64,000 bases of DNA from Patescibacteria group bacterium (GTDB lineage: Bacteria > Patescibacteriota > Minisyncoccia > GCA-002772825): contig JANLHB010000016.1 of the NCBI GenBank assembly GCA_024654625.1, positions 128,137 to 192,136 of the forward strand, in the 5' to 3' direction. This document shows, in pieces, positions 6,012-38,899 of the stretch (positions are counted from its first letter, which is position 1; each line of letters opens with the position of its first letter). The notes beneath the pieces were generated by a model. The model was not told where the DNA came from, searched no databases, and was given only the letters and a program-made list of their open reading frames with translations. The position numbers and the translations under genes were made by a program.

Positions 6012-6015
6012 ATTT

Positions 6016-6648: not shown

Positions 6649-6652
6649 CGAT

Positions 6653-8383: not shown

Positions 8384-8388
8384 CCACC

Positions 8389-8577: not shown

Positions 8578-8579
8578 CC

Positions 8580-8786
8580 ATGCCAAACGATCCAAACGAA
8601 AACAGAAATCCGCTTGATCCGCAATTGGGACTCATTCTCACTCTGTTGAGAGATATCCCGATTTTGAATACGGTCCCGAGCGACCCGCCAAAGTTTCCGA
8701 TCGGATTCGCGCTCTATGACGACGGTGTAAATCGGAGGTTTTACATTTTCTTCAATGGCAACTGGCGATATGTAGCTCTCACTTAA
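8580..8786 (+). CDS. Small hypothetical protein
   Basis: 68-aa ORF with 2-4 nt gaps to its neighbours on the same strand. Confidence 0.4.
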   Translation: MPNDPNENRNPLDPQLGLILTLLRDIPILNTVPSDPPKFPIGFALYDDGVNRRFYIFFNGNWRYVALT

Positions 8787-8790
8787 ACAT

Positions 8791-10161: not shown

Positions 10162-10166
10162 CAGCT

Positions 10167-23089: not shown

Positions 23090-25210
23090 ATGAAAAATTT
23101 AAATAAATACGATATAGAATTTCTGATCGAGTGTTTAAAAAGCGGCAAGGAAATCCCAACAGAATATAAGTACGCGCTTTTTCCAACCAAGCAAAAAGAA
23201 TACGAGCTTGTTTATGCCGGGAAAATGCGAAAAGAGGATGTGCTGGCAGACACCGAGGAAGCCAAGCCAGTGCCGCTCCAAATCGAAAAAGTTTTTAATG
23301 GCAAGAAATATCCACTTTACTCCAAAGATTGGCACAACCTTTTGGTTTTTGGCGATAATCTTCAAATCCTTAAAACCTTTAATGAGAATAAGGACCTGCT
23401 CGTCAAAAATAAAATTAAGGGGAAAGTAAAACTGATTTATATTGATCCGCCATTTGCAACGGAAGATGATTTCAGAGGAAATGGTGGAGCGAAAGCATAT
23501 TCTGACAAAGCAAAAGGTGCTGAATTTGTTGAATTTTTGCGCCGCCGCTTAATAGTAGCAAAGGAAGTGTTGGCAGATGACGGTACAATTTGGGTTCATT
23601 TGGATCATCGCAAAGCAGAATACATAAAAGTTTTAATGGATGAAATTTTTCCAAGTTGTTATCTTAATACAATTTATTGGCGTAGTCAGGTGGCAAGGGG
23701 CGCAAAAGTTAATGCTGAATTTTTACCAAAAAGTTGCCAACAGATTTTAGTTTACAAAAAGCGCACTGATGCAAAGCCCTTGTGGGAAGCACCCAAAAGG
23801 GAAATTATTTTGACGGAAGAAGAAATTAAACAAGAAGGCAGTTATAAACAAGACGAAAAAGGAAATTACTTTAGAACATCGGACCCGGGATCATATTCAT
23901 TTGAAAGCCTGCTTGACTTTTACAAGCAAGGTCGCATTTATGTGAGCTATGGCGGTAAAGTGATTTTTGATAACAAAAAAAAGGAAGTAAAAACGACAAA
24001 AGGGAAAATCGGCATAAAGTATTATGCTGAAGGTTTGGGCGGCGGAAAGTATAAAATTATAAGGTCAATCGATAATATTTGGACGGATATACCAGGACTT
24101 GGAACGGTGCCATCAGAAGATACTGGATATCCAACACAAAAAGTTGAAACTCTTTTAGAGAGGATCGTAAGTTCAACAACAAACACGGGCGATTTGGTAA
24201 TGGATTTCTTTTCCGGGAGTGGAACAACGGCAATAGTCGCCGAAAAATTAGGTAGGCGTTGGGTTGCCTGTGATATCGGGAAGTTATCAATCTACACAAT
24301 TCAAAAGCGATTATTAGAGATAGATCGGGGCCGAGATTTGATCGACTTAAAGAAAAAATATGGTAAGCCGGCAAAATCTTTCGCCATCGTTACTTCGGGG
24401 CTTTATGATCTTGGAAAGATTTTTGCTCTACAAAAAGATGAATATACTCGCTTCGTGAAAGATTTATTTGAAATTGAGGAAACGAAGGTTACAAAAATAG
24501 GTGGTGTCGAAATCGATGGGAAGAAGCGAGAATTTTACGCGAAAATCTTTCCATATTGGGAACTGAAAAATGCCAGCGTTGATGAAAAGTATTTGCAGGA
24601 ATTACATAAGAGCATTGGCGGGAAAATTGATGAAAGATTTTACATAATCGCTCCCGCGAACAATGTAAATTTTATCAGCGATTATCACCAGATTGGCAAT
24701 GTTCGGTATTATTTTCTCAAAGTACCGTACCAGATCATTAAAGAATTGCACAAGGTTCAGTTTAAGAAGTTTCGACAGCCACAAAGCAAAAGCCAAATCA
24801 ATGATTTGGACGAGGCAATTGGTTTTCACTTTATTCGTCAGCCAGAAGTAAAATCAGAGGTTAAAAAGTTGAAAGATAAAATCGTTTTGAAAATCAAAAG
24901 ATTTGAGTCCGCATATTCACAGGACGAAACCGGCGAAAAACTCAAAAACTTTGAAAGCTTGGCAATGTTGCTTTTGGATTTAAATTATGACGGCGAAAAG
25001 TTTATGATGACAAACTACTTTTTCGCACATGATTTGCTTAATCATAAGTCAAGCGATCAGGAAGAAAGCGAGGAAGAAATTAAAATGGAATTAAAGAAAC
25101 AAAAAGAAATTATCAAAGAATTTCCGAGAAAAGATTGCGGTAAAGAAATTATGGCAATTTATGTTGATATTTACGGTAATGAATTTCGGGAAGTTTTTAA
25201 GGTTAAATAA
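23090..25210 (+). CDS. mod: Type III restriction-modification Mod subunit (beta-class N6-adenine/N4-cytosine DNA methyltransferase)
   Basis: Motif IV, LIYIDPPF (DPPF), lies N-terminal to motif I, DFFSGSGTTAIVAEKLGRRWVACD (FxGxG). This order is the beta-class arrangement, and the res gene follows immediately. Confidence 0.8.
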   Translation: MKNLNKYDIEFLIECLKSGKEIPTEYKYALFPTKQKEYELVYAGKMRKEDVLADTEEAKPVPLQIEKVFNGKKYPLYSKDWHNLLVFGDNLQILKTFNENKDLLVKNKIKGKVKLIYIDPPFATEDDFRGNGGAKAYSDKAKGAEFVEFLRRRLIVAKEVLADDGTIWVHLDHRKAEYIKVLMDEIFPSCYLNTIYWRSQVARGAKVNAEFLPKSCQQILVYKKRTDAKPLWEAPKREIILTEEEIKQEGSYKQDEKGNYFRTSDPGSYSFESLLDFYKQGRIYVSYGGKVIFDNKKKEVKTTKGKIGIKYYAEGLGGGKYKIIRSIDNIWTDIPGLGTVPSEDTGYPTQKVETLLERIVSSTTNTGDLVMDFFSGSGTTAIVAEKLGRRWVACDIGKLSIYTIQKRLLEIDRGRDLIDLKKKYGKPAKSFAIVTSGLYDLGKIFALQKDEYTRFVKDLFEIEETKVTKIGGVEIDGKKREFYAKIFPYWELKNASVDEKYLQELHKSIGGKIDERFYIIAPANNVNFISDYHQIGNVRYYFLKVPYQIIKELHKVQFKKFRQPQSKSQINDLDEAIGFHFIRQPEVKSEVKKLKDKIVLKIKRFESAYSQDETGEKLKNFESLAMLLLDLNYDGEKFMMTNYFFAHDLLNHKSSDQEESEEEIKMELKKQKEIIKEFPRKDCGKEIMAIYVDIYGNEFREVFKVK

Positions 25211-25215: not shown

Positions 25216-27762
25216 ATGACAGAAGGCATTAAAATATACAAAACACAGGACTTGGTTTTGCAAGTGAAGCAAAATTATAATCCCGCCAAGCTCAATTTGA
25301 AAAAATGGGTTGATTTTATTGATGTACTTTGCGGCGATAGAGAGTTTCAAAAAGAAGCGATCAGGGATTCGGTTATTTTTCTTGCGTCTGGAGAATATAA
25401 CTCAATCGAAAGTTTAATTGAGGAAAACTTTAGAAAGAACGATGAACTACAGAAAAGATATAAAGATGTCCGTGACTATCAAAGAAATTTGCCATTACCC
25501 CATAAGCTTTCGGCTGTGATTGATTTGGCGACAGGGACAGGCAAAAGCTATGTTATTTATGGTATTGCGCAAATCGCGTTAGGACTTGGCTTGGTTGATA
25601 AGGTTCTGGTGCTTTGCCCATCGCTCACTATTGAGTCGGGCTTAAAAGAAAAGTTTGAGAAGCTTTCCGGGGATGACAAGATAAAGGCGACATTACCAGA
25701 TAATACCGTTTTCAAAAATCCGAGAATTATTGATGCAAACAGCACAATTAAAAATGGCGACATTTGCGTTGAAAATATCCATGCCGTTTATGAGCGGACC
25801 GGCTCATCAATAAATGACAGTTTGAAGAAAAACGGGGAGCGCGTTTTGGTTTTGAACGATGAAGTTCATCATGCCTACAATTCATCAAGCGAGCAGGATA
25901 TAAAAAAATGGAAAGCGTTTTTGCTGAGTCCCGATTTTAATTTCAAATATATTCTCGGTTTTACCGGCACGGCTTATATTGAAGATGAGTATTTTAATGA
26001 TGTTATTTATCGCTACTCAATCCGCGAAGCTGTCGATGATAAAGTAATCAAGTCGGTTGATTATGTTGCGAAAGACGAGAATATAGACAAAAACGAGAAA
26101 TTCCAAAAGATTTATGACAATCATGATGAATTTGTAAAAAAGTACCGGCTTATCAAGCCACTTACGATTTTAGTTACAAAAGATATTTCCAAAGCAAAAA
26201 CACTTCGGGAAGATTTGATTGACTTTTTGGAAAAGCGGGAAAAAATATCGCGCAAGGCGGTTGAAAAAAAGGTTTTGATTGTTACTTCGCATAAAGATCA
26301 CAAGAAAAATGTTTTGGAATTGAAAAATGTTGACGATAAGGATAATTCAGTTGAGTGGATTGTTTCCGTTTCTATGCTTACCGAGGGCTGGGATGTAAAA
26401 AATATTTTTCAAATCGTACCATGGGAGGATCGCGCTTTTAATTCAAAACTTTTAATTGCTCAGGTTTTAGGCCGAGGTCTGCGTATACCAGAAGAATATA
26501 AATCACCCCAGCCGAAGGTTAGGGTTTTCAATCATGACGCTTGGAGTCGGAACATTCGCGGCTTGGTTGATGAAATTTTAGAAATGGAAGTCCGTCTAAC
26601 GAGTGAGGTTTTAACTTCTGGAGATCGGGCGAAATATCACTTTGATTTATACACGATTGACTATGAAAAGCAGGAAAAGGCCGTTAAGGCGGAGAAAGAT
26701 ACGGAAGTTTTTGATTACTCGAAGGGGTATATAAATTTAGTTGCTCAAGTCGAACAGATAGAAAGAGAAACTGAATATGAGGATTTGAGTGGCGTTATCA
26801 AGTCAAAAACAACGGCGATTCAAAAAGAAGTTTTTGGTGTTGACGATGTGGTGGCCAAGATCGTTGAAACTTTCGAGACGAGAGATTTTGAGGCAAAACT
26901 TAGATTTCCAAAGGGTGAATACGAAAAAGAACACTTGCCGCCAGAGAATGAAATAAAAGAGATCGTCATAACCTCAATGCGGAAAGTCGGGATAAAAAGC
27001 GGGGTGTTGACAGAAGATAATGCAAACAGAATCTTCAAAGCGTTTCAAACCCTTTTCAGAGCAAGGGGATCGACAATTGTTTTGGAACGAACAGCAAACA
27101 AGCCGAAGTTAATCGGCACGAAACAACTTGAAAAAGAAAATGTTGCCGTTGGAGCGATCAAACACGGCTCGACGGTTTTCTATACCGAAAATTTCAAAGA
27201 CGAGTGTAAAAATGGAATGATCGATACCTTGCAAGACATAATCAGCGATGAAAATCTGCCGAGAAGCGCAAGCAAAGAAGTTAATCCTTATTGCTTCAAA
27301 ACGCCAGTCAATGTCGTTTTGACAAAACTTGAACCCGAAAGAAGATTTGTTGAAACTTTAGTCAGTCCTCACTTGTGCGAGAAGTTAGATGCTTGGATAA
27401 AATCCCGTGATATGGGATTTTACAGCGTTGAGTATTCGTGGAGAAAAGGTGAGCACCCAACTCAGGGGAGTTTTAACCCCGATTTCTTTATTAGGATTGG
27501 TGAAAAAATCGTTGTTGTTGAAATAAAATCTGACGGTGATGATTCGGATGAAAACAAGGCAAAATATCGTTGGGCGAAAAAACATTTTGAGGACTTAAAT
27601 AGTGAGTTGGCGGCCGCAAAAATCAAACAAAAATACTTTTTCCATTTCTTAAGCCCATCAAGCTATGTCGAATTTACAGAATACTTGTTCGATGGCAGAT
27701 TATTCAAGGGAGAATTTAGATCGGCACTTGAAGATTTGCTTGAAAAAAATCATAGTGAATAA
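25216..27762 (+). CDS. res: Type III restriction enzyme Res subunit (SF2 helicase plus C-terminal PD-(D/E)xK endonuclease)
   Basis: Helicase motif I DLATGTGKSYV, motif II LNDEVHHA (DEVH) and arginine-finger region AQVLGRGLR. C-terminal nuclease NPDFFIRIGEKIVVVEIKSD. Confidence 0.8.
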   Translation: MTEGIKIYKTQDLVLQVKQNYNPAKLNLKKWVDFIDVLCGDREFQKEAIRDSVIFLASGEYNSIESLIEENFRKNDELQKRYKDVRDYQRNLPLPHKLSAVIDLATGTGKSYVIYGIAQIALGLGLVDKVLVLCPSLTIESGLKEKFEKLSGDDKIKATLPDNTVFKNPRIIDANSTIKNGDICVENIHAVYERTGSSINDSLKKNGERVLVLNDEVHHAYNSSSEQDIKKWKAFLLSPDFNFKYILGFTGTAYIEDEYFNDVIYRYSIREAVDDKVIKSVDYVAKDENIDKNEKFQKIYDNHDEFVKKYRLIKPLTILVTKDISKAKTLREDLIDFLEKREKISRKAVEKKVLIVTSHKDHKKNVLELKNVDDKDNSVEWIVSVSMLTEGWDVKNIFQIVPWEDRAFNSKLLIAQVLGRGLRIPEEYKSPQPKVRVFNHDAWSRNIRGLVDEILEMEVRLTSEVLTSGDRAKYHFDLYTIDYEKQEKAVKAEKDTEVFDYSKGYINLVAQVEQIERETEYEDLSGVIKSKTTAIQKEVFGVDDVVAKIVETFETRDFEAKLRFPKGEYEKEHLPPENEIKEIVITSMRKVGIKSGVLTEDNANRIFKAFQTLFRARGSTIVLERTANKPKLIGTKQLEKENVAVGAIKHGSTVFYTENFKDECKNGMIDTLQDIISDENLPRSASKEVNPYCFKTPVNVVLTKLEPERRFVETLVSPHLCEKLDAWIKSRDMGFYSVEYSWRKGEHPTQGSFNPDFFIRIGEKIVVVEIKSDGDDSDENKAKYRWAKKHFEDLNSELAAAKIKQKYFFHFLSPSSYVEFTEYLFDGRLFKGEFRSALEDLLEKNHSE

Positions 27763-27785
27763 CGATCTCAAGAAAATCTGCTCTT

Positions 27786-27815
27786 AAAAAATAATGCCCG
27801 GGAGGGCATTATTTC
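27786..27815. terminator. Bidirectional intrinsic terminator (AATAATGCCC-GGGA-GGGCATTATT) between res (+) and a convergent small gene (-)
   Basis: Perfect 10-bp inverted repeat flanked by an A-run on the 5' side and a T-containing tract on the 3' side. Confidence 0.55.
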
Positions 27816-28042
27816 GTCTGGTGGGGAGTGTCGGTCCGATTGAGCCATTCCTGAAATTCTGCCTTTCTTTCTGGCGTTCCAGAGCGACCCAAAGAATTAA
27901 AAAGAGATTGAGCTTCGTTCTTGCTCGCACCCTTGAGTATTCCGGCGATCCATTTGAGATTTTTCTCGCCTTCAAGGTAAGAACGAAGGGAGTTTTTGAC
28001 CCAACGACTTCCCGCCTCTTGTAATGAGATGTTTCTCGACAT
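27809..28042 (-). CDS. Small hypothetical protein (77 aa), divergent from the XRE gene
   Basis: ORF with ordinary composition sharing a 160-nt divergent intergenic region with the XRE HTH gene. The alternative overlapping ORF 27784-28080 looks spurious. Confidence 0.35.
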   Translation of the reverse strand: MSRNISLQEAGSRWVKNSLRSYLEGEKNLKWIAGILKGASKNEAQSLFNSLGRSGTPERKAEFQEWLNRTDTPHQTK

Positions 28043-28133
28043 AGTAAAGCTACCTTAGCATTTTTTTGTTTTTTTATCAACTTGATAGACGGAATTTGAC
28101 AATGTGGGCAACCTATTGACTTTTATTTAGTGA

Positions 28134-28186
28134 GGTAGTACCATTGGGGTAGTATTACCGAATTGAGGTCATTTTGTAGTACAATC
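28134..28186 (+). promoter_or_regulatory. Candidate operator/promoter: three GTAGTA-containing repeats (GGTAGTA at 28134 and 28148, TGTAGTACAAT at 28176) with a TACAAT -10-like box 18 nt upstream of the XRE start
   Basis: Direct repeats read off the sequence in the 160-nt divergent intergenic region. Confidence 0.3.
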
Positions 28187-28203: not shown

Positions 28204-28413
28204 ATGCCAAAACAACAAAATCCATTGGGTCGAAACCTCAAGTCGCTGAGAGAGAAGCGTGGTCTTTCGCAGGATCGATTAGCGAAGTTGGCGGATGTCT
28301 CAAACAATACGATCATTGGGATCGAGCAGGATGAGAATCCGAATCCGACACTTGAGACCCTCAAGAAAATAGCAAAAGCTCTTGAGGTAAGTATCGATGA
28401 TTTGACCCGATAA
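28204..28413 (+). CDS. XRE-family helix-turn-helix transcriptional regulator
   Basis: LGRNLKSLREKRGLSQDRLAKLADVSNNTIIGIEQDENPNPTLETLKKIAKALEVSIDDL is a classic HTH_3 sequence. The next gene starts 4 nt downstream. Confidence 0.8.
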   Translation: MPKQQNPLGRNLKSLREKRGLSQDRLAKLADVSNNTIIGIEQDENPNPTLETLKKIAKALEVSIDDLTR

Positions 28414-28417
28414 CCAT

Positions 28418-28948
28418 ATGCAATTTTTTAATATTTTCACCACGATCAGCCCTCAAGCGATAGAAGTCGCGCTCCTTTCGGTCGTGGCTATTTTATTAAT
28501 AGGGGTGATCCTGTCGATCAGCAAACTCACTACTGGATTTTTGAAAGCACTAACTCACCTGCGTGATAGCTTCCGAGAGGAAATACGATTCTCCATCCAA
28601 CCAAAAGTTATTGAGATGTCTTTAAGCGTGGAATCATTAGTTGAACTCGCCGTAGAGGTTTGGAGAATAGAGCAACGATTGGCAAAAGTTACTTCAGGAC
28701 TTACCGATATCCAGAAGAAAGGGCTTGAGAGTTCGGTCCAAAAGCTGAAGCGATACTTGGAAAAATACGATTTAGAAATCCGAGATTATACCAATCAAAA
28801 ATTCAACGAAGGCCTGAATTTGGATATTTTGTCAGTAGAAAAGGACCCGACAATTACCGAGCCGATAGTCAAAGAGACGGTTGAGCCAACGATCATGTGC
28901 AAAGGTCAGGTCGTGAAAAAAGCCAAAATCATACTCTTGAGCAATTAA
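28418..28948 (+). CDS. Membrane-anchored GrpE-like nucleotide-exchange-factor homologue
   Basis: N-terminal transmembrane segment (ALLSVVAILLIGVILSI) and a long helix. KGLESSVQKLKRYLEKYDLEIRDYTNQKFNEGLNLDI resembles the GrpE core motif G[VL]E..x.K.L...LEK.GVE.ID..G..FDPNLHEA. The terminal CKGQVVKKAKIILL resembles the GrpE C-terminus (GY.l.drvLRpAkV.V). Confidence 0.55.
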   Translation: MQFFNIFTTISPQAIEVALLSVVAILLIGVILSISKLTTGFLKALTHLRDSFREEIRFSIQPKVIEMSLSVESLVELAVEVWRIEQRLAKVTSGLTDIQKKGLESSVQKLKRYLEKYDLEIRDYTNQKFNEGLNLDILSVEKDPTITEPIVKETVEPTIMCKGQVVKKAKIILLSN

Positions 28949-28952
28949 ACCT

Positions 28953-31469
28953 ATGTCAAAACACAACGCGCAAAACATTCAAATCGGCATCGATTTGGGG
29001 ACGACAAACTCCGAGATCGCCATTAATAATAACGGCAATGTTGAGCTGGTGAAAAATGTCTTCGGAGACGAATATACCCCGTCCGTTTTTGGAATTGATA
29101 AAGCGAAAAACAAGGTGGTTGGAAAAAGAGCATACGAGAGGTTGTACAAGGATGCTTCGGAGGATGAATTTTCAAATAACAAAGCAGAGGTAAAGCGTTT
29201 AATGGGAACTTCGGAAACTGTACGCTTCCCGAGGATCAATCAAGAAATGACCCCTGAGGAAATCTCGGCGGAAATATTAAAGAGCCTCAAGGAAGATGTA
29301 TTGAGAAAGTACCCCGATTTTGAGACACGGACCGCCGTGATCACCATCCCGGCGTATTTTTCTACTCTGCAGGCAGAGGCGACCAAGAGAGCCGGCAATC
29401 TGGCGGGATTTGAGTATGCGGTATTGCTTCAAGAACCGATAGCGGCCGCAATGGCCTACGGGTTCATGAATGCGAAAAATGAGAACTGGATCATTTATGA
29501 TCTTGGCGGCGGTACTTTCGATGTCGCGCTTATCTCGTCAAAGGACGGAGCATTGTCAGTGCTTGGCCATAATGGCGATAACTTTTTAGGGGGAAAGGAT
29601 TTTGACTGGCTGATCGTGGACAAAGTTATCGTCCCCGCAATTTTAGAAAAACACGAAATAAAAGATTTCAATCGTGGCAATTCAAAATACAGAAGCGTGT
29701 TCGCAAAGCTGAAGTATATTGCCGAGAACGCGAAAATGTATTTGTCTCAATACGAAAAAACAAACCTTGAAATAGAGGGAATCGGAGATGATGACGATAG
29801 TAACGAAATTTATGTAACCGCTGAAATGACCCGTAAAGGATTTGAGCAACTCATAAAGCCGATGGTTGACCGAACAGTTGAGCTCGCTAAAGAGACAATC
29901 CAAGAGTCCGGGGTCAAACAATCGACTATTCACAAGATCATATTAGTAGGCGGTCCGACCCAAATCCCTTACATTAAAGACCGCTTGAATCGAGAATTTA
30001 AAATTACAGTCGATGCATCCGTAGACCCCTTGACGGTGGTTGCCCGCGGCGCATGCATATTTGCCGTCAGTCAGCGAATCCCCAAAGAATTCCTCAAGGA
30101 AAAGAAAGTGGCCGCTGGCGTGAAAACGCTGACGCTGAACTACGAATCGCTCACATCGGAAGAAGAAGTAACTGTGAGCGGTGTAGTCGAGCAACTGAAA
30201 AATTCAGATGATGAATATTATATTCAAATCCAAAGCGAGAGTGGATTCTATAGCGGATCGAAAATTAAGTTGAAGGGCGGCAAATTCTTCGACACGATTG
30301 CACTCGAACCGCACAAGACCAGCCTCTTCTGGGTTTACTTATTTGATAAGGATGGAAACTCTGTGCAAGTTGATCCCGATTCTTTCTCCATCACTCATGG
30401 ACTTTCCGTAACCGGCGCACCAATACCGCACTCTATCGGTGTTGCCGTAGCAAAAAGAGATATGAGCAGTGGCTTTGCTCTTACTGAAATGTTTGAGCCG
30501 TTCTTCGAAAAAAACAGCGTTCTGCCCCTACGGACCACCAAAACATATAAGACGGTAAAGAGATTGAAAAAGGGAGATACCGAAAATGCTTTGCCAATTA
30601 AGGTATACGAGGGAGAATCCGAAACACCAGACCGCAATCACATTATTTGCGACCTTAAGATCACGGGAGAAAATTTGCCGTATGACCTGCCAGACGGCAC
30701 CGAAGTGGAGATCAAGATAGAGGTCAATGAATCGAGAGAAGTAACGGTTGAAGCTTTTATTCCAACTATCGACTTATCTCTTAACGCGCGAGCCACAATC
30801 CACGCCGAAGATATTGATGTCAAGCAGATGGAGTCCGATCTCAATGCCCAACGGGAACGCATAAAAACCATTGAGGCGAACTGTACGGCGGAAGAAAAAG
30901 CAAAACTGGAAAACACTGTTCAATCAGTGAATACGAGCATAGGCAACGCCCACATCGATCAGGACGAAAAGCGGAAAGCGCACACACACCTGAAAGCTTT
31001 GAAAGTTAAGCTCGATCAGATCGAAAAAGCGAAAGAATTGCCGCAACTTACTAAAGAATTCAATGAGGGCATTGCTGATGTCCAGAAGGTCGTTGAAACA
31101 CTCGGCGATGAGAAAGAGAAGGGCATGAATAATGACCAGCTAAAAACGCTGAAAGAAGAAGGCGAAAGAGCTATCGAAAGTAAAGATAAATACTTACTCA
31201 TGCGAGTTAACGAACAGATCAAAGAGCTGGGCATACGGGTGGCATTGGCTAACCCGGCCATGTGGGTATACCACTTTGAGAAACTCACGACGGAAAACCA
31301 TGCTTTCCTAAGCGAGAAGGAGGCGAGCTATTACATTTCTAAAGGGAAACGCGCGATAGAACTGGGCGATGTCGATGAACTCAAGAGGTGCGTCCATAGT
31401 TTGATGCTTCTGCTCCCGCCAGAAGAACAGGAAGCGATCCGCGGCAATCTTTCCGGCATCACTCACTAA
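28953..31469 (+). CDS. Divergent Hsp70 (DnaK-family) paralogue of 838 aa, with an insertion between the nucleotide-binding and substrate-binding domains and an extended helical C-terminus
   Basis: IGIDLGTTNSEIAI (Hsp70 signature 1 region), DLGGGTFDVALI (signature 2) and ILVGGPTQIPYIKDRL (signature 3 region). A substrate-binding beta-domain-like stretch is IKVYEGESETPDRNHIICDLKITGENLPYDLPDGTEVEIKIEVNESREVTVEAF. About 150 extra residues separate the NBD and SBD. Confidence 0.85.
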   Translation: MSKHNAQNIQIGIDLGTTNSEIAINNNGNVELVKNVFGDEYTPSVFGIDKAKNKVVGKRAYERLYKDASEDEFSNNKAEVKRLMGTSETVRFPRINQEMTPEEISAEILKSLKEDVLRKYPDFETRTAVITIPAYFSTLQAEATKRAGNLAGFEYAVLLQEPIAAAMAYGFMNAKNENWIIYDLGGGTFDVALISSKDGALSVLGHNGDNFLGGKDFDWLIVDKVIVPAILEKHEIKDFNRGNSKYRSVFAKLKYIAENAKMYLSQYEKTNLEIEGIGDDDDSNEIYVTAEMTRKGFEQLIKPMVDRTVELAKETIQESGVKQSTIHKIILVGGPTQIPYIKDRLNREFKITVDASVDPLTVVARGACIFAVSQRIPKEFLKEKKVAAGVKTLTLNYESLTSEEEVTVSGVVEQLKNSDDEYYIQIQSESGFYSGSKIKLKGGKFFDTIALEPHKTSLFWVYLFDKDGNSVQVDPDSFSITHGLSVTGAPIPHSIGVAVAKRDMSSGFALTEMFEPFFEKNSVLPLRTTKTYKTVKRLKKGDTENALPIKVYEGESETPDRNHIICDLKITGENLPYDLPDGTEVEIKIEVNESREVTVEAFIPTIDLSLNARATIHAEDIDVKQMESDLNAQRERIKTIEANCTAEEKAKLENTVQSVNTSIGNAHIDQDEKRKAHTHLKALKVKLDQIEKAKELPQLTKEFNEGIADVQKVVETLGDEKEKGMNNDQLKTLKEEGERAIESKDKYLLMRVNEQIKELGIRVALANPAMWVYHFEKLTTENHAFLSEKEASYYISKGKRAIELGDVDELKRCVHSLMLLLPPEEQEAIRGNLSGITH

Positions 31470-31470
31470 T

Positions 31471-33105
31471 ATGCCCAAAACACTCAAAAACAATTCATAC
31501 CACATTCTGGGACTTGATACTTCTGTAAGCCAGAGGGATGTTTTGAAGCGATCAAAGGAAATTATCAATCGCCTCAAGATTGACGATTTACCAGTGTATG
31601 ATCTGGACTTGGATATTTTTGAGGATTTCCGAACGGAGGAGTCGGTAAAGGAAGCGGTCCAAAAATTATCCGCGCCCAAAAAGAGAATCAAAGAATATTT
31701 CTTCTGGTTTCAAATTGCGGATAGCGTTGACGAGCAAGCGGCCGGCCTTCTCAAGAGCAAGAATTATGCCGAAGCGAGCCGAGTTTGGGAGCACAACTCG
31801 GAGAAAGATACTGCGAAGTCGTTTCTATACAAAAAGAACCTTGCTATTTTGCACTGCCTGCTACTTTTCAAAAAGAACAGCAAAACAAATCTCACGCAAT
31901 CGATGAAGATTTGGAAAGAACTTCTTGACTCCGATAAGTTTTGGAACGCATTCGCCAAAGTATATAAGCTTCATGACGAACTTGGCACAAGCCAGGAGAT
32001 CATAGATGAGTTTAAATCAAACGCCATCTCTTATGTGGCGGATATTTATACTGAACTCGGGCATTTCCACAATGATAATTCGTATGTCGCGGAAAGCTCC
32101 AAGATTCTTGAAGCCAAAGGGGCGGCAACAGAAAAAACTGTCCTGAATCCAATCTATCAGAGCATCGCAGAGGTGGTGGATCAATTGGAATCGTTGAAGG
32201 TTAGCGAGGACGGGATGATTGATAAAAAGGAAGCGCAGACGATCAAGACGCTGATCGGGAAACTTCAAGGTGAGTTCAACAAGCTTATTGAGATAGGCCT
32301 GTACGAAGATAGCCAATCCAAAGCGATCAGGGATAGAGCCGCAAACGCCATTCGAGTCGTTGTGCTGGATTTGCATAATAATCTCAGCGAGACAGACAAG
32401 GCAATTGCATTAATGAATGTTGCATTAAAGATTTCCGGCACCGCCGGCCTTGAGTCAAAGGTAAAACATGATATCCGGGTACTCGAAGAAACAAAGAAAA
32501 ATGCTGGCCTTATTGCTCCTGTTGCCAATCTGGTAGCCGAAGAAAAATATGAAGAGGCGTTGAGACAGATTGAATCAGATAGGAAAAAGTTCAGTGGCAA
32601 TGCCGAATTGCAGGAATTTTACGATGGACAGAAAAAGCTCTGCATAAGCATGCTTGCACTAAATAAATACAAACAAGCCCGGGATTATTTTGATAAACAG
32701 CAAGAAGATAAAGCAAAGCCGTTATTTGATGAAGCGGGCAAGCTGATTCATGACAACATTAATCTCTTCAACTTTAATAATAAAGTTATTGACGAGATGG
32801 TTGAGGAGATTAAATCCAACATGGCAAAAGTGAATCTCAATAACTTGAGTCAATTTGACGAATACAGAAATTCTTACATCAATCTTGCGAAAGAAAAATT
32901 TGAGGGCCAGCTTGAGCAGGGAGCCTTTATCGTGCTGATCGACGCTCACATCTATGGCGGCTTAACTGGATTCATGAAAGGGGCGCGGCAAAAGAACAAT
33001 GTGGCCAATATTTTATATACCCTCGGATGGATAACTGTCTGGTTTTATGGGATCGGCCTGATTTTCTTCATAGCCGGCTGGGTTTACAAAAATCGAAATA
33101 CATAA
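31471..33105 (+). CDS. J-domain-like co-chaperone homologue lacking the HPD tripeptide, with a long helical region and two C-terminal transmembrane segments
   Basis: The N-terminus NSYHILGLDTSVSQRDVLKRSKEIINRLKIDD aligns with J-domain helices I-II (Y.iLGv....s..ei.kaYrkl..k.HPD), but IDD replaces HPD. The C-terminus (ILYTLGWITVWFYGIGLIFFIAGWVY) is hydrophobic. Confidence 0.5.
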   Translation: MPKTLKNNSYHILGLDTSVSQRDVLKRSKEIINRLKIDDLPVYDLDLDIFEDFRTEESVKEAVQKLSAPKKRIKEYFFWFQIADSVDEQAAGLLKSKNYAEASRVWEHNSEKDTAKSFLYKKNLAILHCLLLFKKNSKTNLTQSMKIWKELLDSDKFWNAFAKVYKLHDELGTSQEIIDEFKSNAISYVADIYTELGHFHNDNSYVAESSKILEAKGAATEKTVLNPIYQSIAEVVDQLESLKVSEDGMIDKKEAQTIKTLIGKLQGEFNKLIEIGLYEDSQSKAIRDRAANAIRVVVLDLHNNLSETDKAIALMNVALKISGTAGLESKVKHDIRVLEETKKNAGLIAPVANLVAEEKYEEALRQIESDRKKFSGNAELQEFYDGQKKLCISMLALNKYKQARDYFDKQQEDKAKPLFDEAGKLIHDNINLFNFNNKVIDEMVEEIKSNMAKVNLNNLSQFDEYRNSYINLAKEKFEGQLEQGAFIVLIDAHIYGGLTGFMKGARQKNNVANILYTLGWITVWFYGIGLIFFIAGWVYKNRNT

Positions 33106-33109
33106 ATTT

Positions 33110-33808
33110 ATGTCTGACAAAGAACGATTAAAATTTGATCTTGATTTTTTAGAGAAAGAACAGGAAAAACCTGCCGATGCAAAGCCGGCAGAGGTTCACA
33201 AACCGGCCGAGACGACCGGCGAGAAGTTACCCCTTATCGAATACATAAAAGCGATTTTTAAGGACTTCCCGGCATTTTGCAATAAATATCTTCGGGTAAA
33301 AAATCCGCCCTATCTGTTCTTTATTATCTGGGCTGTTGGAGTGGCAACTGCTATTGATCGAATGAGCGACTACGGGGGCAGTACTTGGCTCGAAGTTTGG
33401 GCTATCGTTTTAATCGGTGGACTCGTAGCGGGGTATTTGCAATATTGGATCGGTGGCGCAATTTATCACTTGCGGGTCAAGTGGTCGAAAGGCGGCGACA
33501 ATTATGATGCATCCAGAAACATCAATATGTTTTCTGGGATACCAGTTGCGATCGCCAGCATTGGCTCCTTACTTCTGAATACAATTGTTTATGGGAATGA
33601 TTACTTTAAATCCGGCGAGGGCAATTCTTTGGATATACTGTTCTTCTTTGTAATAGTCACCGCGATAGCATACTCCATTCGATTAAGCTACAAAGGAGTC
33701 ATGTTTATTCAGCAAACAGAGAAAACCAGAGCCATGATTTGGTTTGTCGTATTGCCGGCAATTTTCTATGTTTTGATATTTTCGGCCGCAATTTTTAATA
33801 AACTATGA
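33110..33808 (+). CDS. Polytopic membrane protein (Yip1-like topology) with the N-terminal MSDKERLKFDLDFLEKE motif
   Basis: 232 aa with four to five predicted transmembrane helices after a charged N-terminus. The N-terminal peptide is shared with the next gene. Confidence 0.55.
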   Translation: MSDKERLKFDLDFLEKEQEKPADAKPAEVHKPAETTGEKLPLIEYIKAIFKDFPAFCNKYLRVKNPPYLFFIIWAVGVATAIDRMSDYGGSTWLEVWAIVLIGGLVAGYLQYWIGGAIYHLRVKWSKGGDNYDASRNINMFSGIPVAIASIGSLLLNTIVYGNDYFKSGEGNSLDILFFFVIVTAIAYSIRLSYKGVMFIQQTEKTRAMIWFVVLPAIFYVLIFSAAIFNKL

Positions 33809-34416
33809 GCGATAAAGATAAAAAGTTAGATTTTGATCTGAGGTTTCTGGACGAGGAATCGCCTAAACCGAAACAAGCGATTCGAAAGGATCGCGCAAAA
33901 CCACAATCAGAGACCGCCAGCTCAATTAACTGGAATTGGAAAACAATATCGATAATTGCCGGCGTAATCATAGTGATAATTTGGATCGCTTCTTCGGAAG
34001 ATAGCACTACGCCAACATCAACTTATACGCCGCCGAGCACTAATCAAGTCAGAAACATATCTGCCGATGACGATAGTGTTGAATACGGAGAATATAGATG
34101 CTCGCGATACCATTATGATAAAGCTGTTGCGCTGTCTCCGAGCGAAAGCGAGCAAACCTTAAATAGCGCACAATTTTCTATGGATACTCGAGCCAGCGAA
34201 TTGGAGCGATTGCAAAGAGAAATCGAGTACAGTGATGTCAACGATTATTCGTCACAATGGGAAATCGATGACTACAACGAAAAAGTAAATACATATAATT
34301 ACAAACTCACTTCTTACAAACGAGATGCCACTGCACTTGACTCTCGCATCGATAGGTTTAATGCTCAAGTAGCGGTCCACAATAATTATCTCACTCAAAA
34401 TTGCACACCAAGATAA
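33805..34416 (+). CDS. Single-pass membrane protein with an extracytoplasmic domain and the N-terminal MSDKDKKLDFDLRFLDEE motif
   Basis: 203 aa with one transmembrane segment (ISIIAGVIIVIIWIA). The start overlaps the upstream stop (ATGA), and it shares the N-terminal motif with 33110-33808. Confidence 0.55.
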   Translation: MSDKDKKLDFDLRFLDEESPKPKQAIRKDRAKPQSETASSINWNWKTISIIAGVIIVIIWIASSEDSTTPTSTYTPPSTNQVRNISADDDSVEYGEYRCSRYHYDKAVALSPSESEQTLNSAQFSMDTRASELERLQREIEYSDVNDYSSQWEIDDYNEKVNTYNYKLTSYKRDATALDSRIDRFNAQVAVHNNYLTQNCTPR

Positions 34417-35501
34417 AAAATATGTCAGCACCAACCAAACCAATTTTATACAACAGCTTCAAGATTAAAGAAGGACTCACGATTAAAAATCGTGTAGAGA
34501 AGGTATTCTTTACCGAAGTATATCAGTTGTCAGATGACAGCTACTTTTACTTACTTTTGAACATTAAGCCGAATGAGATTGTAGACAGAGGTAAAAAATA
34601 CGAACTTATAAAAGTACAGCATGGCGGCAACGAATATGTCGGTATTATTACCAAAGAACATTCTCACGAAAAGGTCACTCAGATTATTGAGGATCTGACG
34701 GTTATGCGAGGTTTTGATTGTGTTGCCGGCATGAAGGAATTGAAAGCCCTTCTAATCAATGATGTAATCAGCCCACTTTTGCACCCTGAAAAATTCAAGA
34801 AGTTTAAATTATCGATTCCGAACGGAATTTTGCTCTTCGGACCGCCCGGCTGTGGCAAAACTTTTATTGTTAGAAAACTCGCGGAAGAAATGAGTTACAA
34901 TTTTATTGAGCTAAAACCCTCTGATGTGGCTACGCCTTATGTGCATGGCGCCGTTTCGAATATTGCCAAGGTTTTCGAAATGGCGAAGTTAAAAGCACCC
35001 TCAATTATTTTTATAGATGAGATCGAGGGATTGCTTCCCAAGAGAGAAGAATTGAGCTCCAGCGCGGACATTAAGAAAGAGGAGATCAATCAATTCTTAA
35101 TGGAGTTGAATGATGCCGGCAATAACAAGATTTTGGTTGTCGGAGCGACAAATCGTCCTCATATGATCGACACCGCAATCTTGCGATCAGGGAGAATGGA
35201 CAAGCGAATCTATGTGCCGCCGCCAGATTTTGAGGCGCGCAATGAATTATTCAAAATTTCTTTGTCCGGCCGGCCGTATGATAAAAATATCGACTTCGAA
35301 AAGTTGGCCAAGCTAACAGAAAACTTTGTAAGTTCCGATGTAGAGTTGATTGTTACGGAAGCGGCTCGTGCCGCTGTAGCCGGGAACATGGCTCTCATTG
35401 ATGAAAAACTAATCCGCACAATTATAGAAAGATTCACTCCCTCTGTGACAGAGGAGCAGGTTGAATATTACGAGCAGTTCAGAAATCTTGAGCGTTCGTA
35501 G
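34401..35501 (+). CDS. AAA+ ATPase (classical AAA clade)
   Basis: Walker A GILLFGPPGCGKTF, Walker B IIFIDEIEGL and second region of homology GATNRPHMIDTAILRSGRMDKRIYV. The start overlaps the upstream gene. Confidence 0.85.
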   Translation: MHTKIKNMSAPTKPILYNSFKIKEGLTIKNRVEKVFFTEVYQLSDDSYFYLLLNIKPNEIVDRGKKYELIKVQHGGNEYVGIITKEHSHEKVTQIIEDLTVMRGFDCVAGMKELKALLINDVISPLLHPEKFKKFKLSIPNGILLFGPPGCGKTFIVRKLAEEMSYNFIELKPSDVATPYVHGAVSNIAKVFEMAKLKAPSIIFIDEIEGLLPKREELSSSADIKKEEINQFLMELNDAGNNKILVVGATNRPHMIDTAILRSGRMDKRIYVPPPDFEARNELFKISLSGRPYDKNIDFEKLAKLTENFVSSDVELIVTEAARAAVAGNMALIDEKLIRTIIERFTPSVTEEQVEYYEQFRNLERS

Positions 35502-35810
35502 TTAAACCTTTTTGAGCGATTTGAAAAATACCGCCGCCACTACCAAATCAACAACCGACCAAAGGAAGTGACCAAAGTAAAATGGATTGATTGGGTTAAA
35601 GATAATTGCGACAACTATCATGACCCACATCCATTTTTTATTTTTATCTAAATGAAAGGTATACGCAGAGTAAGCCGCAGTGCCGAAAATCAAAAATTTC
35701 AAGAGCTGATAAAAAAAATACGGCCAGATTGGAATCATCGCGATCAACAGCGCTACGGCCGATAGTTTGGAGAATAAGTTTTTATAGTGTGTCTGTTCGG
35801 CGGTTATCAT
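35502..35810 (-). CDS. Small polytopic membrane protein
   Basis: 102 aa with three hydrophobic helices. It is convergent with the AAA gene. Confidence 0.45.
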   Translation of the reverse strand: MITAEQTHYKNLFSKLSAVALLIAMIPIWPYFFYQLLKFLIFGTAAYSAYTFHLDKNKKWMWVMIVVAIIFNPINPFYFGHFLWSVVDLVVAAVFFKSLKKV

Positions 35811-36317: not shown

Positions 36318-37337
36318 ATGCAATTTAAAGAAGCAATCGATCAATTTTCTAACTGGCGCAGGTTTAAGGTCAAAGTTCAGACCGTAAAAGGTTACGATCA
36401 GACACTGAGACAATTCTGCCTCTACCTTCGAAACCCCCAGATCGAGGACATATCAATCCATCATGTCATGGACTATTTGAATGGCATGAAAGAACTGGGA
36501 TGGGACCAAAATAGCTTTGTCGGGAAGTGCATGGCTCTGCGCAAGTTCTTTGAATTTTATCGACTTCAGAACTATGCAGTTCTCGATGAGAACCTGATTC
36601 CGATACCCAGCAAAGAACATAAACTTCCAAGGGTTGCAAAAGAGGCGGATTATAGGCAACTGATTGCCGCCATACCCGTAAAGACCACCGATCCTCGTCA
36701 TATCCGAAACTTAGCCATCGTGAATTTGTTATGGGACACCGGCGCGAGAAACGGAGAGGTGCTTGCATTAGATGTAGATGATCTGGACATGGAGAGACGC
36801 CGAGCGGTTATCAATACTGAGAAATCAAAAGGAAGGCGGCCGTTTCGGGAATTATTCTGGACACAATCAACCAACGACAGTATATGGGCTTGGTTGAAAA
36901 AAAGAGAACACCTAAAAAAGACAATGGCGTTCAAGGAACCAGATGCTCTCTTTCTCTCGATATGCGCCGGCCAGCACGATACGACAGGCAGACGATTCAC
37001 TATCCGAGGAGTCGGTGAAATGTTGAGGCGTTATTCAAACAGAGCTAAGTTGCCCTACTTGAACGCTCATAGTTTTCGACACCATATGGGTCACCACATT
37101 ATAAAGAGCGGCGGATCAAGCGCCGATGTGATGAATATACTTGGCCACTCGTCGGTCCAGAGCTCGACAATTTACACGATGATGACTGATCACGAATTGG
37201 AAAAGAGATATCGAGGATTCATGAACGATACTCCGACAAAAGAAAGAGCAGAGAGGATAGAGAGAGCAGAAAGAGTTGCGAGAGTCGAAAACTCCGTAGA
37301 GAAATTTGCGAGACCCGTCGTCCCGTTGCCAGATTAA
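36318..37337 (+). CDS. Tyrosine recombinase (XerC/XerD-like phage integrase family)
   Basis: SAM-like N-terminal core-binding domain. Catalytic residues: WDTGARNGE (Arg), HSFRHHMGHH (H-x-x-R) and LGHSSVQSSTIYT (Tyr). Confidence 0.85.
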   Translation: MQFKEAIDQFSNWRRFKVKVQTVKGYDQTLRQFCLYLRNPQIEDISIHHVMDYLNGMKELGWDQNSFVGKCMALRKFFEFYRLQNYAVLDENLIPIPSKEHKLPRVAKEADYRQLIAAIPVKTTDPRHIRNLAIVNLLWDTGARNGEVLALDVDDLDMERRRAVINTEKSKGRRPFRELFWTQSTNDSIWAWLKKREHLKKTMAFKEPDALFLSICAGQHDTTGRRFTIRGVGEMLRRYSNRAKLPYLNAHSFRHHMGHHIIKSGGSSADVMNILGHSSVQSSTIYTMMTDHELEKRYRGFMNDTPTKERAERIERAERVARVENSVEKFARPVVPLPD

Positions 37338-37686: not shown

Positions 37687-38343
37687 ATGAAAGGTGATAT
37701 TTTTCATATTATAAACAGGGGAGTGGAAAAAAGAAAAATCTTTTTAACAGATGAAGATTATTTACGTTTCATTCATAATTTAAAGGATTTTAATTGTAGT
37801 GATCTAGTTACAGCTTCATATCATGATAGGCGAAAATATGAACAGTCGTTGCTTGAGAGACGGTTAAATACAAAATTAGACAATGAATTAGTGGATATAT
37901 TGTGTTGGTGCCTTATGCCAAATCATTACCATATACTTGTTCAGGAAAAAATAGATAAGGGGGTCAGTATGTTTTCTAAAAAAATAAGCAGCGGATATAC
38001 TCAATCTTTTAATTTAAAATATAAGAGATCGGGAGTTTTGTTTCAAGGTCGGTCAAAAATTATTCAAATAGAAAATGATGAGCATCTTCTATTTATCCCT
38101 TATTACATTTTTTCTAATCCCATTAAACTAATAAAAAAGAATTGGAAAGATTATGGTTTGGATAACGCGGAAAAAGCAGTTGAATTCTTAGAAAGCTATA
38201 AGTGGTCAAATTATTCAATTGTGACAAATAATAAGGACTATCCTTTCGTAGGTGACAGAGATCTGTTTTTTGAAATCTTTGATACTAATAAGGAGCAGTT
38301 TAGAAAAGATTTTATAACCTGGCTATGCGATAGCCAGAAATAA
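37687..38343 (+). CDS. IS200/IS605-family Y1 (HuH) transposase / REP-associated tyrosine transposase (RAYT)
   Basis: CWCLMPNHYHILVQ contains the HuH motif (HYH) typical of the IS200-like TnpA fold. The gene is flanked by REP-like palindromes. Confidence 0.75.
   Translation: MKGDIFHIINRGVEKRKIFLTDEDYLRFIHNLKDFNCSDLVTASYHDRRKYEQSLLERRLNTKLDNELVDILCWCLMPNHYHILVQEKIDKGVSMFSKKISSGYTQSFNLKYKRSGVLFQGRSKIIQIENDEHLLFIPYYIFSNPIKLIKKNWKDYGLDNAEKAVEFLESYKWSNYSIVTNNKDYPFVGDRDLFFEIFDTNKEQFRKDFITWLCDSQK
38321..38337. repeat. REP-like palindrome GGCTATGCGATAGCCAG (right end, inside the 3' end of the RAYT gene)
   Basis: Exact copy of the 37655-37671 element. Confidence 0.6.
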
Positions 38344-38680: not shown

Positions 38681-38899
38681 ATGGATAAAATAAAACTTGG
38701 AATATATGAACATAGTAAAAGCGGAAAAAGGTACGAAGTTTTAGGTGTGGGAAAGCACTCTGAAACTCTAGAGGAGATGGTTGTCTATAAAGCGCTCTAT
38801 GGAGAGGGTGGTATCTGGATAAGGCCACTTGAAATGTTTTTAGAAGAGGTGGAAATTGATGGTCAGAAACTCCCGAGATTTAAATATGTTGGAGAGTAA
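38681..38899 (+). CDS. DUF1653-family small protein
   Basis: YEHSKSGKRYEVLGVGKHSETLEEMVVYKALYGEGGIWIRPLEMF matches the DUF1653 pattern (YRHYKG..Y.V..VA.HTET.E..VVYQALYGD..LWVRP..MF). AGGAGG RBS upstream. Confidence 0.7.
   Translation: MDKIKLGIYEHSKSGKRYEVLGVGKHSETLEEMVVYKALYGEGGIWIRPLEMFLEEVEIDGQKLPRFKYVGE

Follow-up and report, generated by a model that had tools for sequence, protein, structure and literature searches.

Reviews of the prokaryotic Hsp70 chaperones distinguish three types, DnaK, HscA and HscC, and refer to the other derivatives of DnaK as unexplored 'dark matter' (PMC8215388, PMC13580251); a 2026 review describes the bacterial DnaK derivatives as largely unexplored. HscC, a protein of 550-580 amino acids (aa), lacks the GrpE signature and needs no exchange factor, and the J-domains of DjlB and DjlC are functional (PMC8215388). 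Hsp70 proteins have moreover been assigned to predicted conflict systems: HSP70 and GrpE occur together with DnaJ/TPR-fused (FNIII-DnaJ/TPR) proteins in the GAP1-N2 GTPase conflict systems (Kaur et al. 2020, PMC7159879), and the CnuD components of CoCoNuT systems are Hsp70-like proteins with degenerate Walker motifs (PMC11090510). The subject of the present work is a compact gene cassette centred on an atypical Hsp70, located at positions 28204-35501 of a 64,000-nucleotide stretch of DNA (hereafter, the window) from a Patescibacteria group bacterium (assembly GCA_024654625.1, contig JANLHB010000016.1, positions 128,137 to 192,136 of the forward strand). The literature searches brought up no description of this cassette, in keeping with the statement of a first-pass annotation, made from the sequence alone, that no such locus had been described; 'ARMADA', considered as a candidate Hsp70 system, turned out to be unrelated.

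The cassette consists of seven tightly packed plus-strand open reading frames (ORFs), as the first-pass annotation had it; the coordinates match the ORF calls exactly, and the first six genes are separated, in order, by 4, 4, 1 and 4 nucleotides (nt) and then by a 4-nt overlap. The seven genes, together with the convergent gene that abuts the last of them, are the following:

28204..28413, plus strand: XRE-family helix-turn-helix (HTH) regulator, 69 aa (Pfam HTH_3, E = 1.3e-16)
28418..28948, plus strand: GrpE-like nucleotide-exchange factor with one N-terminal transmembrane (TM) helix (PF01025, sub-threshold in the window protein)
28953..31469, plus strand: atypical Hsp70, 838 aa (Pfam HSP70, E = 1.3e-84)
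31471..33105, plus strand: J-like domain without the His-Pro-Asp (HPD) motif, followed by a TPR-like solenoid and a tail anchor (N-terminal profile and AlphaFold2 (AF2) model)
33110..33808, plus strand: Yip1-family multi-pass membrane protein (Pfam Yip1, E = 2.7e-11)
33805..34416, plus strand: single-pass membrane protein with an outer coiled-coil hairpin (alignment of 14 relatives)
34401..35501, plus strand: classical-clade AAA ATPase, Cdc48/p97 D2-like, single ring (Pfam AAA, E = 4.6e-35, and AAA_lid_3)
35502..35810, minus strand: DUF6804 small membrane protein, convergent and abutting the AAA stop codon (Pfam DUF6804, E = 1e-21)

The last junction of the cassette is either a 16-nt overlap, if the AAA gene starts at the TTG at 34401, or a 5-nt gap, if it starts at the ATG at 34422; the ATG is more plausibly the start, since the homologues are 358-359 aa long. 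Upstream of the HTH gene lies a promoter-like site (28116-28144, a match to the consensus), overlapped by direct repeats of TGrGGTAGTA (28131-28154), and a perfect 11-bp hairpin (27789-27814) stands directly after the stop codon of the preceding res gene, which belongs to a type III restriction-modification (R-M) system; given the hairpin after res and the promoter-like site before the HTH gene, the cassette is probably its own transcription unit, although consensus matches of this sort do not amount to evidence of function. The top PADLOC matches of the HTH regulator are CapH and the control proteins of R-M systems, i.e. generic ones. A small minus-strand ORF (27784-28080, 98 aa, no Pfam match) lies between res and the cassette, divergent from the HTH gene, and the 11-bp hairpin sits at its 3' end.

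The protein encoded by the third gene is a genuine member of the Hsp70 superfamily (PF00012). The Pfam HSP70 match spans its nucleotide-binding domain (NBD; aa 11-371), over which the closest sequence match in the PDB is DnaK (E = 2e-59); the alignment with DnaK residues 376-496, corresponding to the beta-subdomain of the substrate-binding domain (SBD-beta), is weak. In the AF2 model (mean predicted local distance difference test, pLDDT, 79) the NBD (1-373) is followed by a six-strand beta-domain (~390-482), a linker (480-490), an eight-strand SBD-beta (495-614) and ten helices (623-831), and a Foldseek search with this model returned full-length DnaK as the top match (E = 6e-36), aligned end to end over 640-790 columns. 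The insertion between NBD and SBD claimed in the first-pass annotation is therefore real, at ~110-120 aa (roughly residues 374-494) rather than the ~150 aa proposed; a further ~100 aa of the protein are accounted for by extra C-terminal helices. The fold of the ~93-aa inserted beta-domain was not found by the Foldseek search of the Hsp70 model, the output of which was dominated by DnaK. The linker, ITHGLSVxGAP, is almost invariant in the family and is modelled with low confidence, and the pocket positions of SBD-beta remain hydrophobic.

Pairwise alignment to an E. coli DnaK sequence indicates that the catalytic residues D8, K70, E171, D194, T199 and D201 are all kept, and all six are invariant in the family alignment; the protein is thus predicted, from sequence and model, to be ATPase-competent and to possess a peptide-binding SBD-beta. 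The loop of lobe IIB at the position of the DnaK 'GrpE signature' (residues 290-295) is present and not deleted. Other positions have changed: R167 of DnaK corresponds to V157, at least 90% conserved in the family, N170 to Q160, invariant in the family, and R151 to Ala. With the NCBIfam DnaK equivalog models the protein scores 282 bits for NF001413 (cut-off 648) and 276 bits for TIGR02350 (cut-off 823), and the NBD is only ~32% identical to a canonical DnaK NBD (L014; numbers of this kind designate related loci). Because the equivalog cut-offs are failed and the interface residues are changed, this Hsp70 is not a canonical DnaK; against PADLOC it gives only matches with E > 0.03. Its extreme C-terminus (31410-31469; LLLPPEEQ…NLSGIT[HR]) is nearly invariant in the family, in particular at L817, L820, P822, G835 and I836. 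In eukaryotes, a C-terminal EEVD tail docks Hsp70 onto TPR co-chaperones; by analogy, the conserved tail recalls this arrangement and may be a ligand of the J-like solenoid described below.

The assignment of the two cofactors is less immediate, and their relatives are informative. The GrpE-like protein of the window scores 19.4 bits against PF01025, below the cut-off of 25.8, with aa 99-172 aligned to profile positions 90-162; the same profile is matched by 30 out of 30 relatives (E <= 0.01, best E = 1.7e-8), many of which carry a precomputed GrpE annotation, some being named GrpE by NCBI or JGI. A comparison with one E. coli GrpE sequence by hhalign is colinear but weak (E = 0.011) and covers the part comprising the four-helix bundle and the beta-domain. 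The relationship to GrpE is a distant one, since a profile search of the PDB with the family did not retrieve GrpE. Where canonical GrpE has its long N-terminal helix, the GrpE-like protein has a TM helix (~aa 15-37), which is followed by a short helical region.

The J-like protein of the window has no Pfam match. Its AF2 model (pLDDT 86) is all helical, and helices 9-13, 21-36, 56-66 and 69-77 fit the J topology, the domain comprising aa 1-77. A profile of the full-length protein gave only marginal matches in the PDB, and the J-domain signal emerged once the profile was restricted to the first 89 aa: 14 of the 17 matches are then J-domains (E from 0.013 to 3), in the same register. Pfam DnaJ is matched by 14 of 25 relatives (best E = 1.9e-4), no one match being significant by itself. 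In place of HPD the window protein has K-I-D-D, and HPD is found at the aligned position in none of the 223 family members, which read [KQ]-I-[DEG]-[DE]; the claim of a J-like protein devoid of HPD is therefore borne out by the family alignment. The remainder of the protein resembles TPR-type solenoids, with the BiP co-chaperone P58IPK as the top, albeit weak, Foldseek match, and ends in a C-terminal tail anchor (TM ~514-540). In DnaK, R167 contacts D35 of DnaJ. That R167 is replaced by Val and N170 by Gln in the Hsp70, and that HPD is absent throughout the J-like family, suggests an interface between the two proteins that is co-adapted and non-canonical. As for the molecular assignments made at first pass, all seven hold in profile searches, with the qualification that those of the GrpE-like and J-like proteins are weak in the window proteins themselves and convincing only at the level of their families.

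Two membrane proteins are encoded between the J-like and AAA genes of the window. The first belongs to the Yip1 family (Pfam PF04893, 44.1 bits against a cut-off of 28.6), has four to five TM segments by hydropathy and bears the motif MSDKERLKFDLDFLEKE in its cytoplasmic N-terminus. The second, whose cytoplasmic N-terminus bears the motif MSDKDKKLDFDLRFLDEE, has a single TM segment (~47-63) followed by a Ser/Thr-rich linker and an outer coiled-coil hairpin, which in the alignment of 14 relatives is bracketed by two conserved Cys and ends with NNYLxxNC; the outer domain has only coiled-coil-like matches in the PDB, none of them informative. The similarity of the two window proteins is limited to their first 38 aa (E = 2e-5). 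This shared cytoplasmic motif, approximately K-x-h-x-[FI]-D-x-x-F-L-[DE], is carried by all membrane proteins whose genes lie between those of the J-like protein and the AAA ATPase: a pattern scan of 619 ORFs across 476 kb found it in 22, all 22 located between these two genes and none elsewhere. The architectures bearing it number at least three and are unrelated, namely Yip1, the single-pass family and a 307-aa protein with four TM segments.

In five relatives (P0371, P0416, P0431, P0456 and P0474) the J-like protein continues, beyond its TM segment, into the outer domain otherwise found in the single-pass protein; the existence of these natural fusions argues that the two proteins act together, and suggests that the motif is a docking element when they are separate. 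Other variants of the J-like protein carry additional N- or C-terminal TPR repeats (P0408, P0412, P0389 and P0440), and one (P0495) has an N-terminus of GYD/GFD repeats. The TM anchors of the cassette proteins are consistent with hydropathy, which supports the membrane tethering proposed earlier, and the positive-inside rule predicts that the motif and all soluble domains lie on the cytoplasmic side.

The last protein of the cassette is, by its sequence, a classical AAA ATPase of the Cdc48-D2 type. Its closest matches in the PDB are the D2 domains of Cdc48, VAT and p97 (E = 6.5e-90), AAA_lid_3 is matched with E = 3e-7, and CDC48, PAN and FtsH are among its NCBIfam matches; a Walker A (GPPGCGKT), a Walker B (IDEIE), the Arg fingers (LRSGRMD) and an aromatic pore loop can be read in the sequence. 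The N-domain, of ~100 aa, has no match in the PDB.

The seven-gene arrangement is not due to chance, because the same order of core genes, i.e. GrpE-like, Hsp70, J-like and AAA, recurs in about 25 other, independent loci. Thirteen genome contigs keep the order GrpE-like, Hsp70, J-like, membrane protein(s) where present, and AAA, with Hsp70 identities of 55-89%, and a dozen more metagenomic loci display the same core order. The record titles of the 13 contigs name bacteria (Patescibacteria, Omnitrophota, Gracilibacteria, Gammaproteobacteria, Thermodesulfobacteriota and Bacteroidales) as well as DPANN archaea (Woesearchaeota and Nanoarchaeota), these phylum labels being derived from the bins of metagenome-assembled genomes (MAGs). 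L010 and L012, which come from a single study, do not differ in any gene, yet one is binned as Gracilibacteria and the other as Bacteroidales; some of the labels are thus unsafe and probably represent binning errors. The relatives of the Hsp70 number thousands, about 120 of the best being 834-850 aa long and 61-96% identical, and among 1.84 billion cluster representatives (50% identity) the J-like family accounts for 213 clusters at E < 1e-30 and for 807 at E < 1e-10. The identity of 55-70% between Hsp70 proteins from MAGs labelled as different phyla and as archaea points to recent horizontal spread, and the cassette fits the description of a horizontally mobile accessory module.

A fixed septet, as had been envisaged at first pass, is not what is conserved; the conserved unit is a four-gene core, to which the single-pass protein is usually added, the Yip1 and HTH genes being optional and DUF6804 a recurrent eighth gene. 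The Yip1 gene is present in the window and in five other loci (L001, L002, L015, L018 and L022) and absent in many others, and an HTH gene directly upstream on the same strand (L001, L004, L010 and L026) is frequent and not universal. DUF6804 stands beside the cassette in at least 12 loci (L002-L006, L010, L016, L018, L020, L022, L023 and L027), on either side of it, and is usually co-directional in the relatives; an invertible segment was considered as the cause of its opposite orientation in the window and was dropped, no flanking inverted repeats having been found. In the relatives a protease gene often lies just beyond the AAA and DUF6804 genes, either Peptidase_S49/NfeD-like (L002, 17703-18539; L005, 15959-16825; L015 and L018, ~17430-18499) or Trypsin_2 (L003, 16518-17513, minus strand; L022, 14379-15665); the window has none.

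In the window, the surroundings of the cassette are made up of the following features:

60-17452: phage-like block (Pfam domains including BppU_N, SU10 adaptor and LPD38)
19469-20974, minus strand: Mrr-like gene (Pfam Mrr_cat)
21033-22754, minus strand: GmrSD-like gene (Pfam GmrSD_N)
23090-25210, plus strand: type III R-M mod (Pfam N6_N4_Mtase)
25216-27762, plus strand: type III R-M res (Pfam ResIII and SWI2_SNF2)
36318..37337, plus strand: tyrosine recombinase, right end of the prophage-like element (Pfam Phage_integrase, E = 7e-24; PHROG integrase)

Phage-type genes lie upstream, and beyond the integrase the genes are those of the host (PilM, NUDIX, GatB, GAPDH and RpiB among them); it follows that a prophage-like element, the left end of which lies beyond the window, carries the island as cargo at its integrase end. 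The R-M, GmrSD-like, Mrr-like and recombinase genes named in the first-pass annotation are all confirmed by the Pfam matches listed; of the 'defence island' invoked there, the defence genes are indeed present, the island itself being carried by the prophage-like element.

The phage-like block encodes a 1876-aa Kelch-repeat protein, BppU_N and SU10 adaptor proteins, a 1908-aa LPD38 'polyvalent' protein that includes a DUF6782 metallopeptidase-like region, and a papain-like peptidase bearing a peptidoglycan-binding domain. In the accessory region of the prophage, just upstream of the Mrr-like gene, two RNA elements occur on the minus strand, an S-adenosylmethionine (SAM) riboswitch (18649-18762, 61 bits) and a LOOT RNA (19109-19231, 82.6 bits); the minus-strand ORFs potentially controlled by them (18169-18600 and 18815-19141) have no Pfam match. 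Between the integrase and pilM, the first host gene, there are an IS200-like Y1 transposase (37687-38343) and a DUF1653 gene (38681-38899). Farther on, a 2332-aa probable surface protein with CHB_HEX_C, Fn3, SH3 and peptidoglycan-binding domains is encoded at 52037-59035, a stretch with a G+C content of 0.45-0.50, above that of its surroundings.

The neighbourhood is conserved in kind in the related loci, as the first-pass annotation had anticipated: the core recurs repeatedly beside defence or mobile-element genes. An integrase or a large serine recombinase is found in nine loci, the window included (L002, L004, L005, L010, L017, L018, L020 and L028 being the others). The cassette adjoins a Gabija-like pair in L022, a BpuJI R-M system in L005 and an MvaI/BcnI R-M system in L020; AbiEii and Schlafen-type genes lie near it in L015 and L010, and a 2347-aa kinase-helicase-nuclease protein is encoded beside it in L025, Fic, VapE and ArdC being further neighbours across the related loci. 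In L023 (GCA_040960315.1, JBFOMO010000469.1; 5347-21629) it interrupts the structural genes of a phage: those for terminase, SPP1 portal and minor capsid precede the cassette, which is accompanied by a 289-aa gene and DUF6804, and SU10 major capsid, HK97 gp10-like and tail completion genes follow. In L026 its neighbours are ordinary genes of the host, and phage genes are not seen around it. The pattern of contexts alone cannot separate 'defence' from 'useful to the element'.

To judge from sequences and models, the cassette appears to bring together, at the inner face of the membrane, the parts for an ATP-driven Hsp70 cycle, a substrate-threading AAA ring and private, motif-marked membrane proteins. 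The favoured reading, to which, taken as a whole, about an even chance is assigned, is that of a mobile, membrane-face Hsp70 machine for remodelling or extraction, acting on its own membrane proteins, probably in phage-host conflict. The motif would dock the membrane proteins of the cassette onto the chaperone scaffold, and its most likely receptor would be the J-like/TPR protein, because it is found fused to the single-pass outer domain in some relatives; together with the GrpE-like factor, the J-like domain would drive the cycle of the Hsp70 on the motif-bearing membrane proteins, which the Hsp70 would bind or remodel, and the AAA ring would thread, extract or unfold the polypeptide, the substrate presumably being degraded where an S49/NfeD-like or trypsin-like protease gene follows. 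In this way the machine would control in what state, or how abundantly, membrane proteins are present. Its closest working analogy may be the handing over of sigma32 by DnaK/DnaJ/GrpE to the membrane-bound FtsH, and extraction driven by Cdc48 also comes to mind.

As to biological role, conflict between phage and host, or between phages, is the most likely one, because the cassette is cargo of prophages and defence islands; its probability is put at, or a little below, an even chance. Candidate forms are superinfection exclusion and an abortive infection that would set in once infection perturbs the chaperone and frees the membrane proteins. A bolder version, put forward only tentatively and considered rather unlikely, would see in the cassette the first anti-phage immune system with an Hsp70 at its centre, acting as a sensor of the chaperone-titration or guard type. 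As long as no phage infects the cell, the membrane-tethered Hsp70, J-like and GrpE-like set and the AAA unfoldase would keep holding or extracting the membrane proteins that bear the motif. Upon infection the machine would be diverted by an excess of viral proteins, by a phage inhibitor or by damage to the envelope that the outer coiled-coil domain senses; the membrane proteins would then accumulate and either prevent entry or make the membrane collapse. Such a system would be a prokaryotic parallel to BiP-gated IRE1 or DnaK-gated sigma32, serving immunity and disseminated by phages among bacteria of the candidate phyla radiation (CPR) and DPANN archaea.

A number of observations weigh against the favoured reading. 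Four loci (L009, L011, L017 and L025) have no separate motif-bearing membrane protein, and such proteins therefore cannot be obligatory substrates. The calls of the GrpE-like and J-like proteins rest on weak scores; no toxin or nuclease effector is recognisable in the cassette, the only candidates being the small membrane proteins; and PADLOC-DB v2.0.0 has no match for the GrpE-like, J-like and membrane proteins and no model for the core proteins. With identities of 55-70% across phyla, the cassette proteins are unusually conserved for defence genes. Finally, the position of the cassette among the head genes of L023 fits a function of the phage's own as well as it fits a moron, and searches of PHROGs, INPHARED and IMG/VR show the cassette to be almost missing from catalogued phages, with none of 50,697 INPHARED genomes and a single one of 2.9 million IMG/VR contigs containing it.

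A rival explanation is that the cassette, as a chaperone/unfoldase set encoded by a phage or prophage, serves the mobile element itself in steps that take place at the membrane, such as the assembly of virions or giant proteins, the timing of lysis or the translocation of DNA or protein across the membrane, and not in defence. This explanation, doubtful though far from negligible, is favoured by the phage head-gene module of L023 and by the fact that the window, L018 and the ERZ1426841 contig carry the cassette in elements with very large proteins and lysin-type genes; high conservation would suit a machine with many fixed partners, and the layout is that of the mitochondrial import motor (Ssc1, Pam18/Pam16 and Mge1). 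In most loci, however, the cassette is found near the integrase, surrounded by R-M and other defence genes, and not in morphogenesis or lysis modules, L026 has it among host genes, and its near absence from INPHARED and IMG/VR, already counted against a role in conflict, tells against a service to phages as well.

If the cassette served neither conflict nor the element, it might be devoted to general quality control of membrane proteins or stress tolerance, as an analogue of HscC-DjlB/DjlC that hitch-hikes on mobile DNA. The combination of a specialised Hsp70 with a C-terminally anchored J partner is indeed common to both (PMC8215388), mobile islands often carry stress genes, and an extra proteostasis module might benefit the small-genome cells of CPR and DPANN organisms; nevertheless, membrane proteins with a dedicated motif point to private rather than general clients, the neighbours are overwhelmingly genes of conflict or mobility and not of stress, and a closed, specialised cycle is what the absence of both HPD and R167 speaks for. 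This explanation is deemed improbable. Least probable of all, and by a wide distance from plausibility, is that the cassette is simply the divergent housekeeping grpE-dnaK-dnaJ operon of the organism. The order of the GrpE-like, Hsp70 and J-like genes would suit it, and no canonical dnaK lies within the 64-kb window; yet the location of the cassette in prophage or phage DNA, next to an integrase in the window and inside a phage in L023, indicates, as far as the window and the related loci allow a judgement, that it is not the housekeeping set. The recent horizontal spread implied by the Hsp70 identities across phylum labels and archaea, the DnaK equivalog score of 282 against 648 bits, the loss of HPD and R167, the membrane anchoring of all cofactors and the low identity to the canonical NBD (L014) all speak in the same direction.

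The cassette is an Hsp70 machine, and there is a substantial chance that its biological role is of a new kind. It defines a large and coherent fourth type of prokaryotic Hsp70, endowed with private cofactors, and links Hsp70 to a Cdc48-type unfoldase in prokaryotes, a short motif marking its presumed clients; the pairing of an HPD-less J-like partner with an Hsp70 in which the corresponding contact residue is lost may be regarded as a natural experiment in the rewiring of the Hsp70 cycle. It is carried by prophages and defence islands in CPR and DPANN organisms, about the phages of which next to nothing is known. A role in defence would imply a proteostasis-sensing mechanism that is in no current catalogue, and a role in the service of phages would make it a rare case of a virus that brings a complete Hsp70 machine.

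Among the described systems, those already placed in conflict settings are the first to be compared. Like the cassette, the GAP1-N2 and CoCoNuT systems have recruited Hsp70 into predicted conflict systems on mobile islands, GAP1-N2 having also GrpE and J/TPR proteins; in contrast to them, the cassette has no GTPase, tubulin, McrBC or HEPN partner and keeps the catalytic residues of its Hsp70, and they in turn have neither an AAA unfoldase nor motif-bearing membrane proteins. Neither the cassette nor its flanks, whether in the window or in the related loci, yielded a GTPase domain, and an identification with CoCoNuT or with a GTPase-HSP70 system was rejected as the required partners are absent. 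The AAA ATPase also matches the IetA models of PADLOC (3.5e-32) and NCBIfam (5.9e-28; a score of 98 against a cut-off of 510). The models of Cdc48, PAN and FtsH outscore IetA on this protein and the cassette has no protease partner of the IetS type; the identification with IetAS was thus discarded, the match reflecting generic similarity of the AAA core.

With the canonical DnaK set the cassette shares the actin fold of the NBD, in which every catalytic residue is kept, the hydrophobic pocket of SBD-beta and the order grpE-dnaK-dnaJ; its putative exchange factor of the GrpE type and its cofactor with a probable J fold are further points of likeness. Whereas canonical DnaK has ~640 aa and a hydrophobic VLLL linker right after the NBD, the cassette Hsp70 has 838 aa and, after the NBD, a beta-domain and then ITHGLSVxGAP; the GrpE-like protein is TM-anchored and devoid of the long N-terminal helix, and the J-like protein lacks not only HPD but also the glycine/phenylalanine-rich (G/F) region, the zinc finger and the client-binding domains of DnaJ, having instead a TPR-like solenoid and a tail anchor. 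The cassette is, moreover, mobile and accessory, and is coupled to a Cdc48-type AAA ATPase rather than to ClpB. The E. coli HscC-DjlB/DjlC system is similar in that a specialised, non-essential Hsp70 has a C-terminally anchored J partner encoded nearby, its clients being presumed to be membrane-proximal, as for the cassette (PMC8215388). The latter differs in the 838-aa length of its Hsp70, in a GrpE-like gene of its own, in the retention of the lobe IIB loop and in the HPD-less partner, and HscC, for its part, lacks an AAA partner as well as dedicated membrane proteins and is not placed in prophages or defence islands; length, exchange factor and HPD-less partner exclude that the cassette is an HscC-DjlB/DjlC system.

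The layout of the cassette recalls machines that work at a membrane. The mitochondrial import motor, composed of Ssc1 (the mitochondrial Hsp70), Mge1, Pam18, Pam16 and Tim44, pulls polypeptides at the membrane, and its Pam16 subunit lacks HPD; it resembles the predicted arrangement of the cassette in having an Hsp70 held at the membrane, a GrpE-type factor and a membrane-anchored J module of which one member is without HPD. The membrane parts are not homologous, no channel was identified in the cassette and an AAA unfoldase is added, so that the analogy is one of layout only. With respect to FtsH, the AAA protein of the cassette is soluble, consists of a single Cdc48-D2-like ring and has no fused protease, and the clients are presumed ones. 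What the cassette would have in common with the sigma32/FtsH pathway, and with the Hsp70-ClpB/Hsp104 couple, is that an Hsp70 triad hands a specific native client to an AAA machine, and that titration of the chaperone by stress sets this client free.

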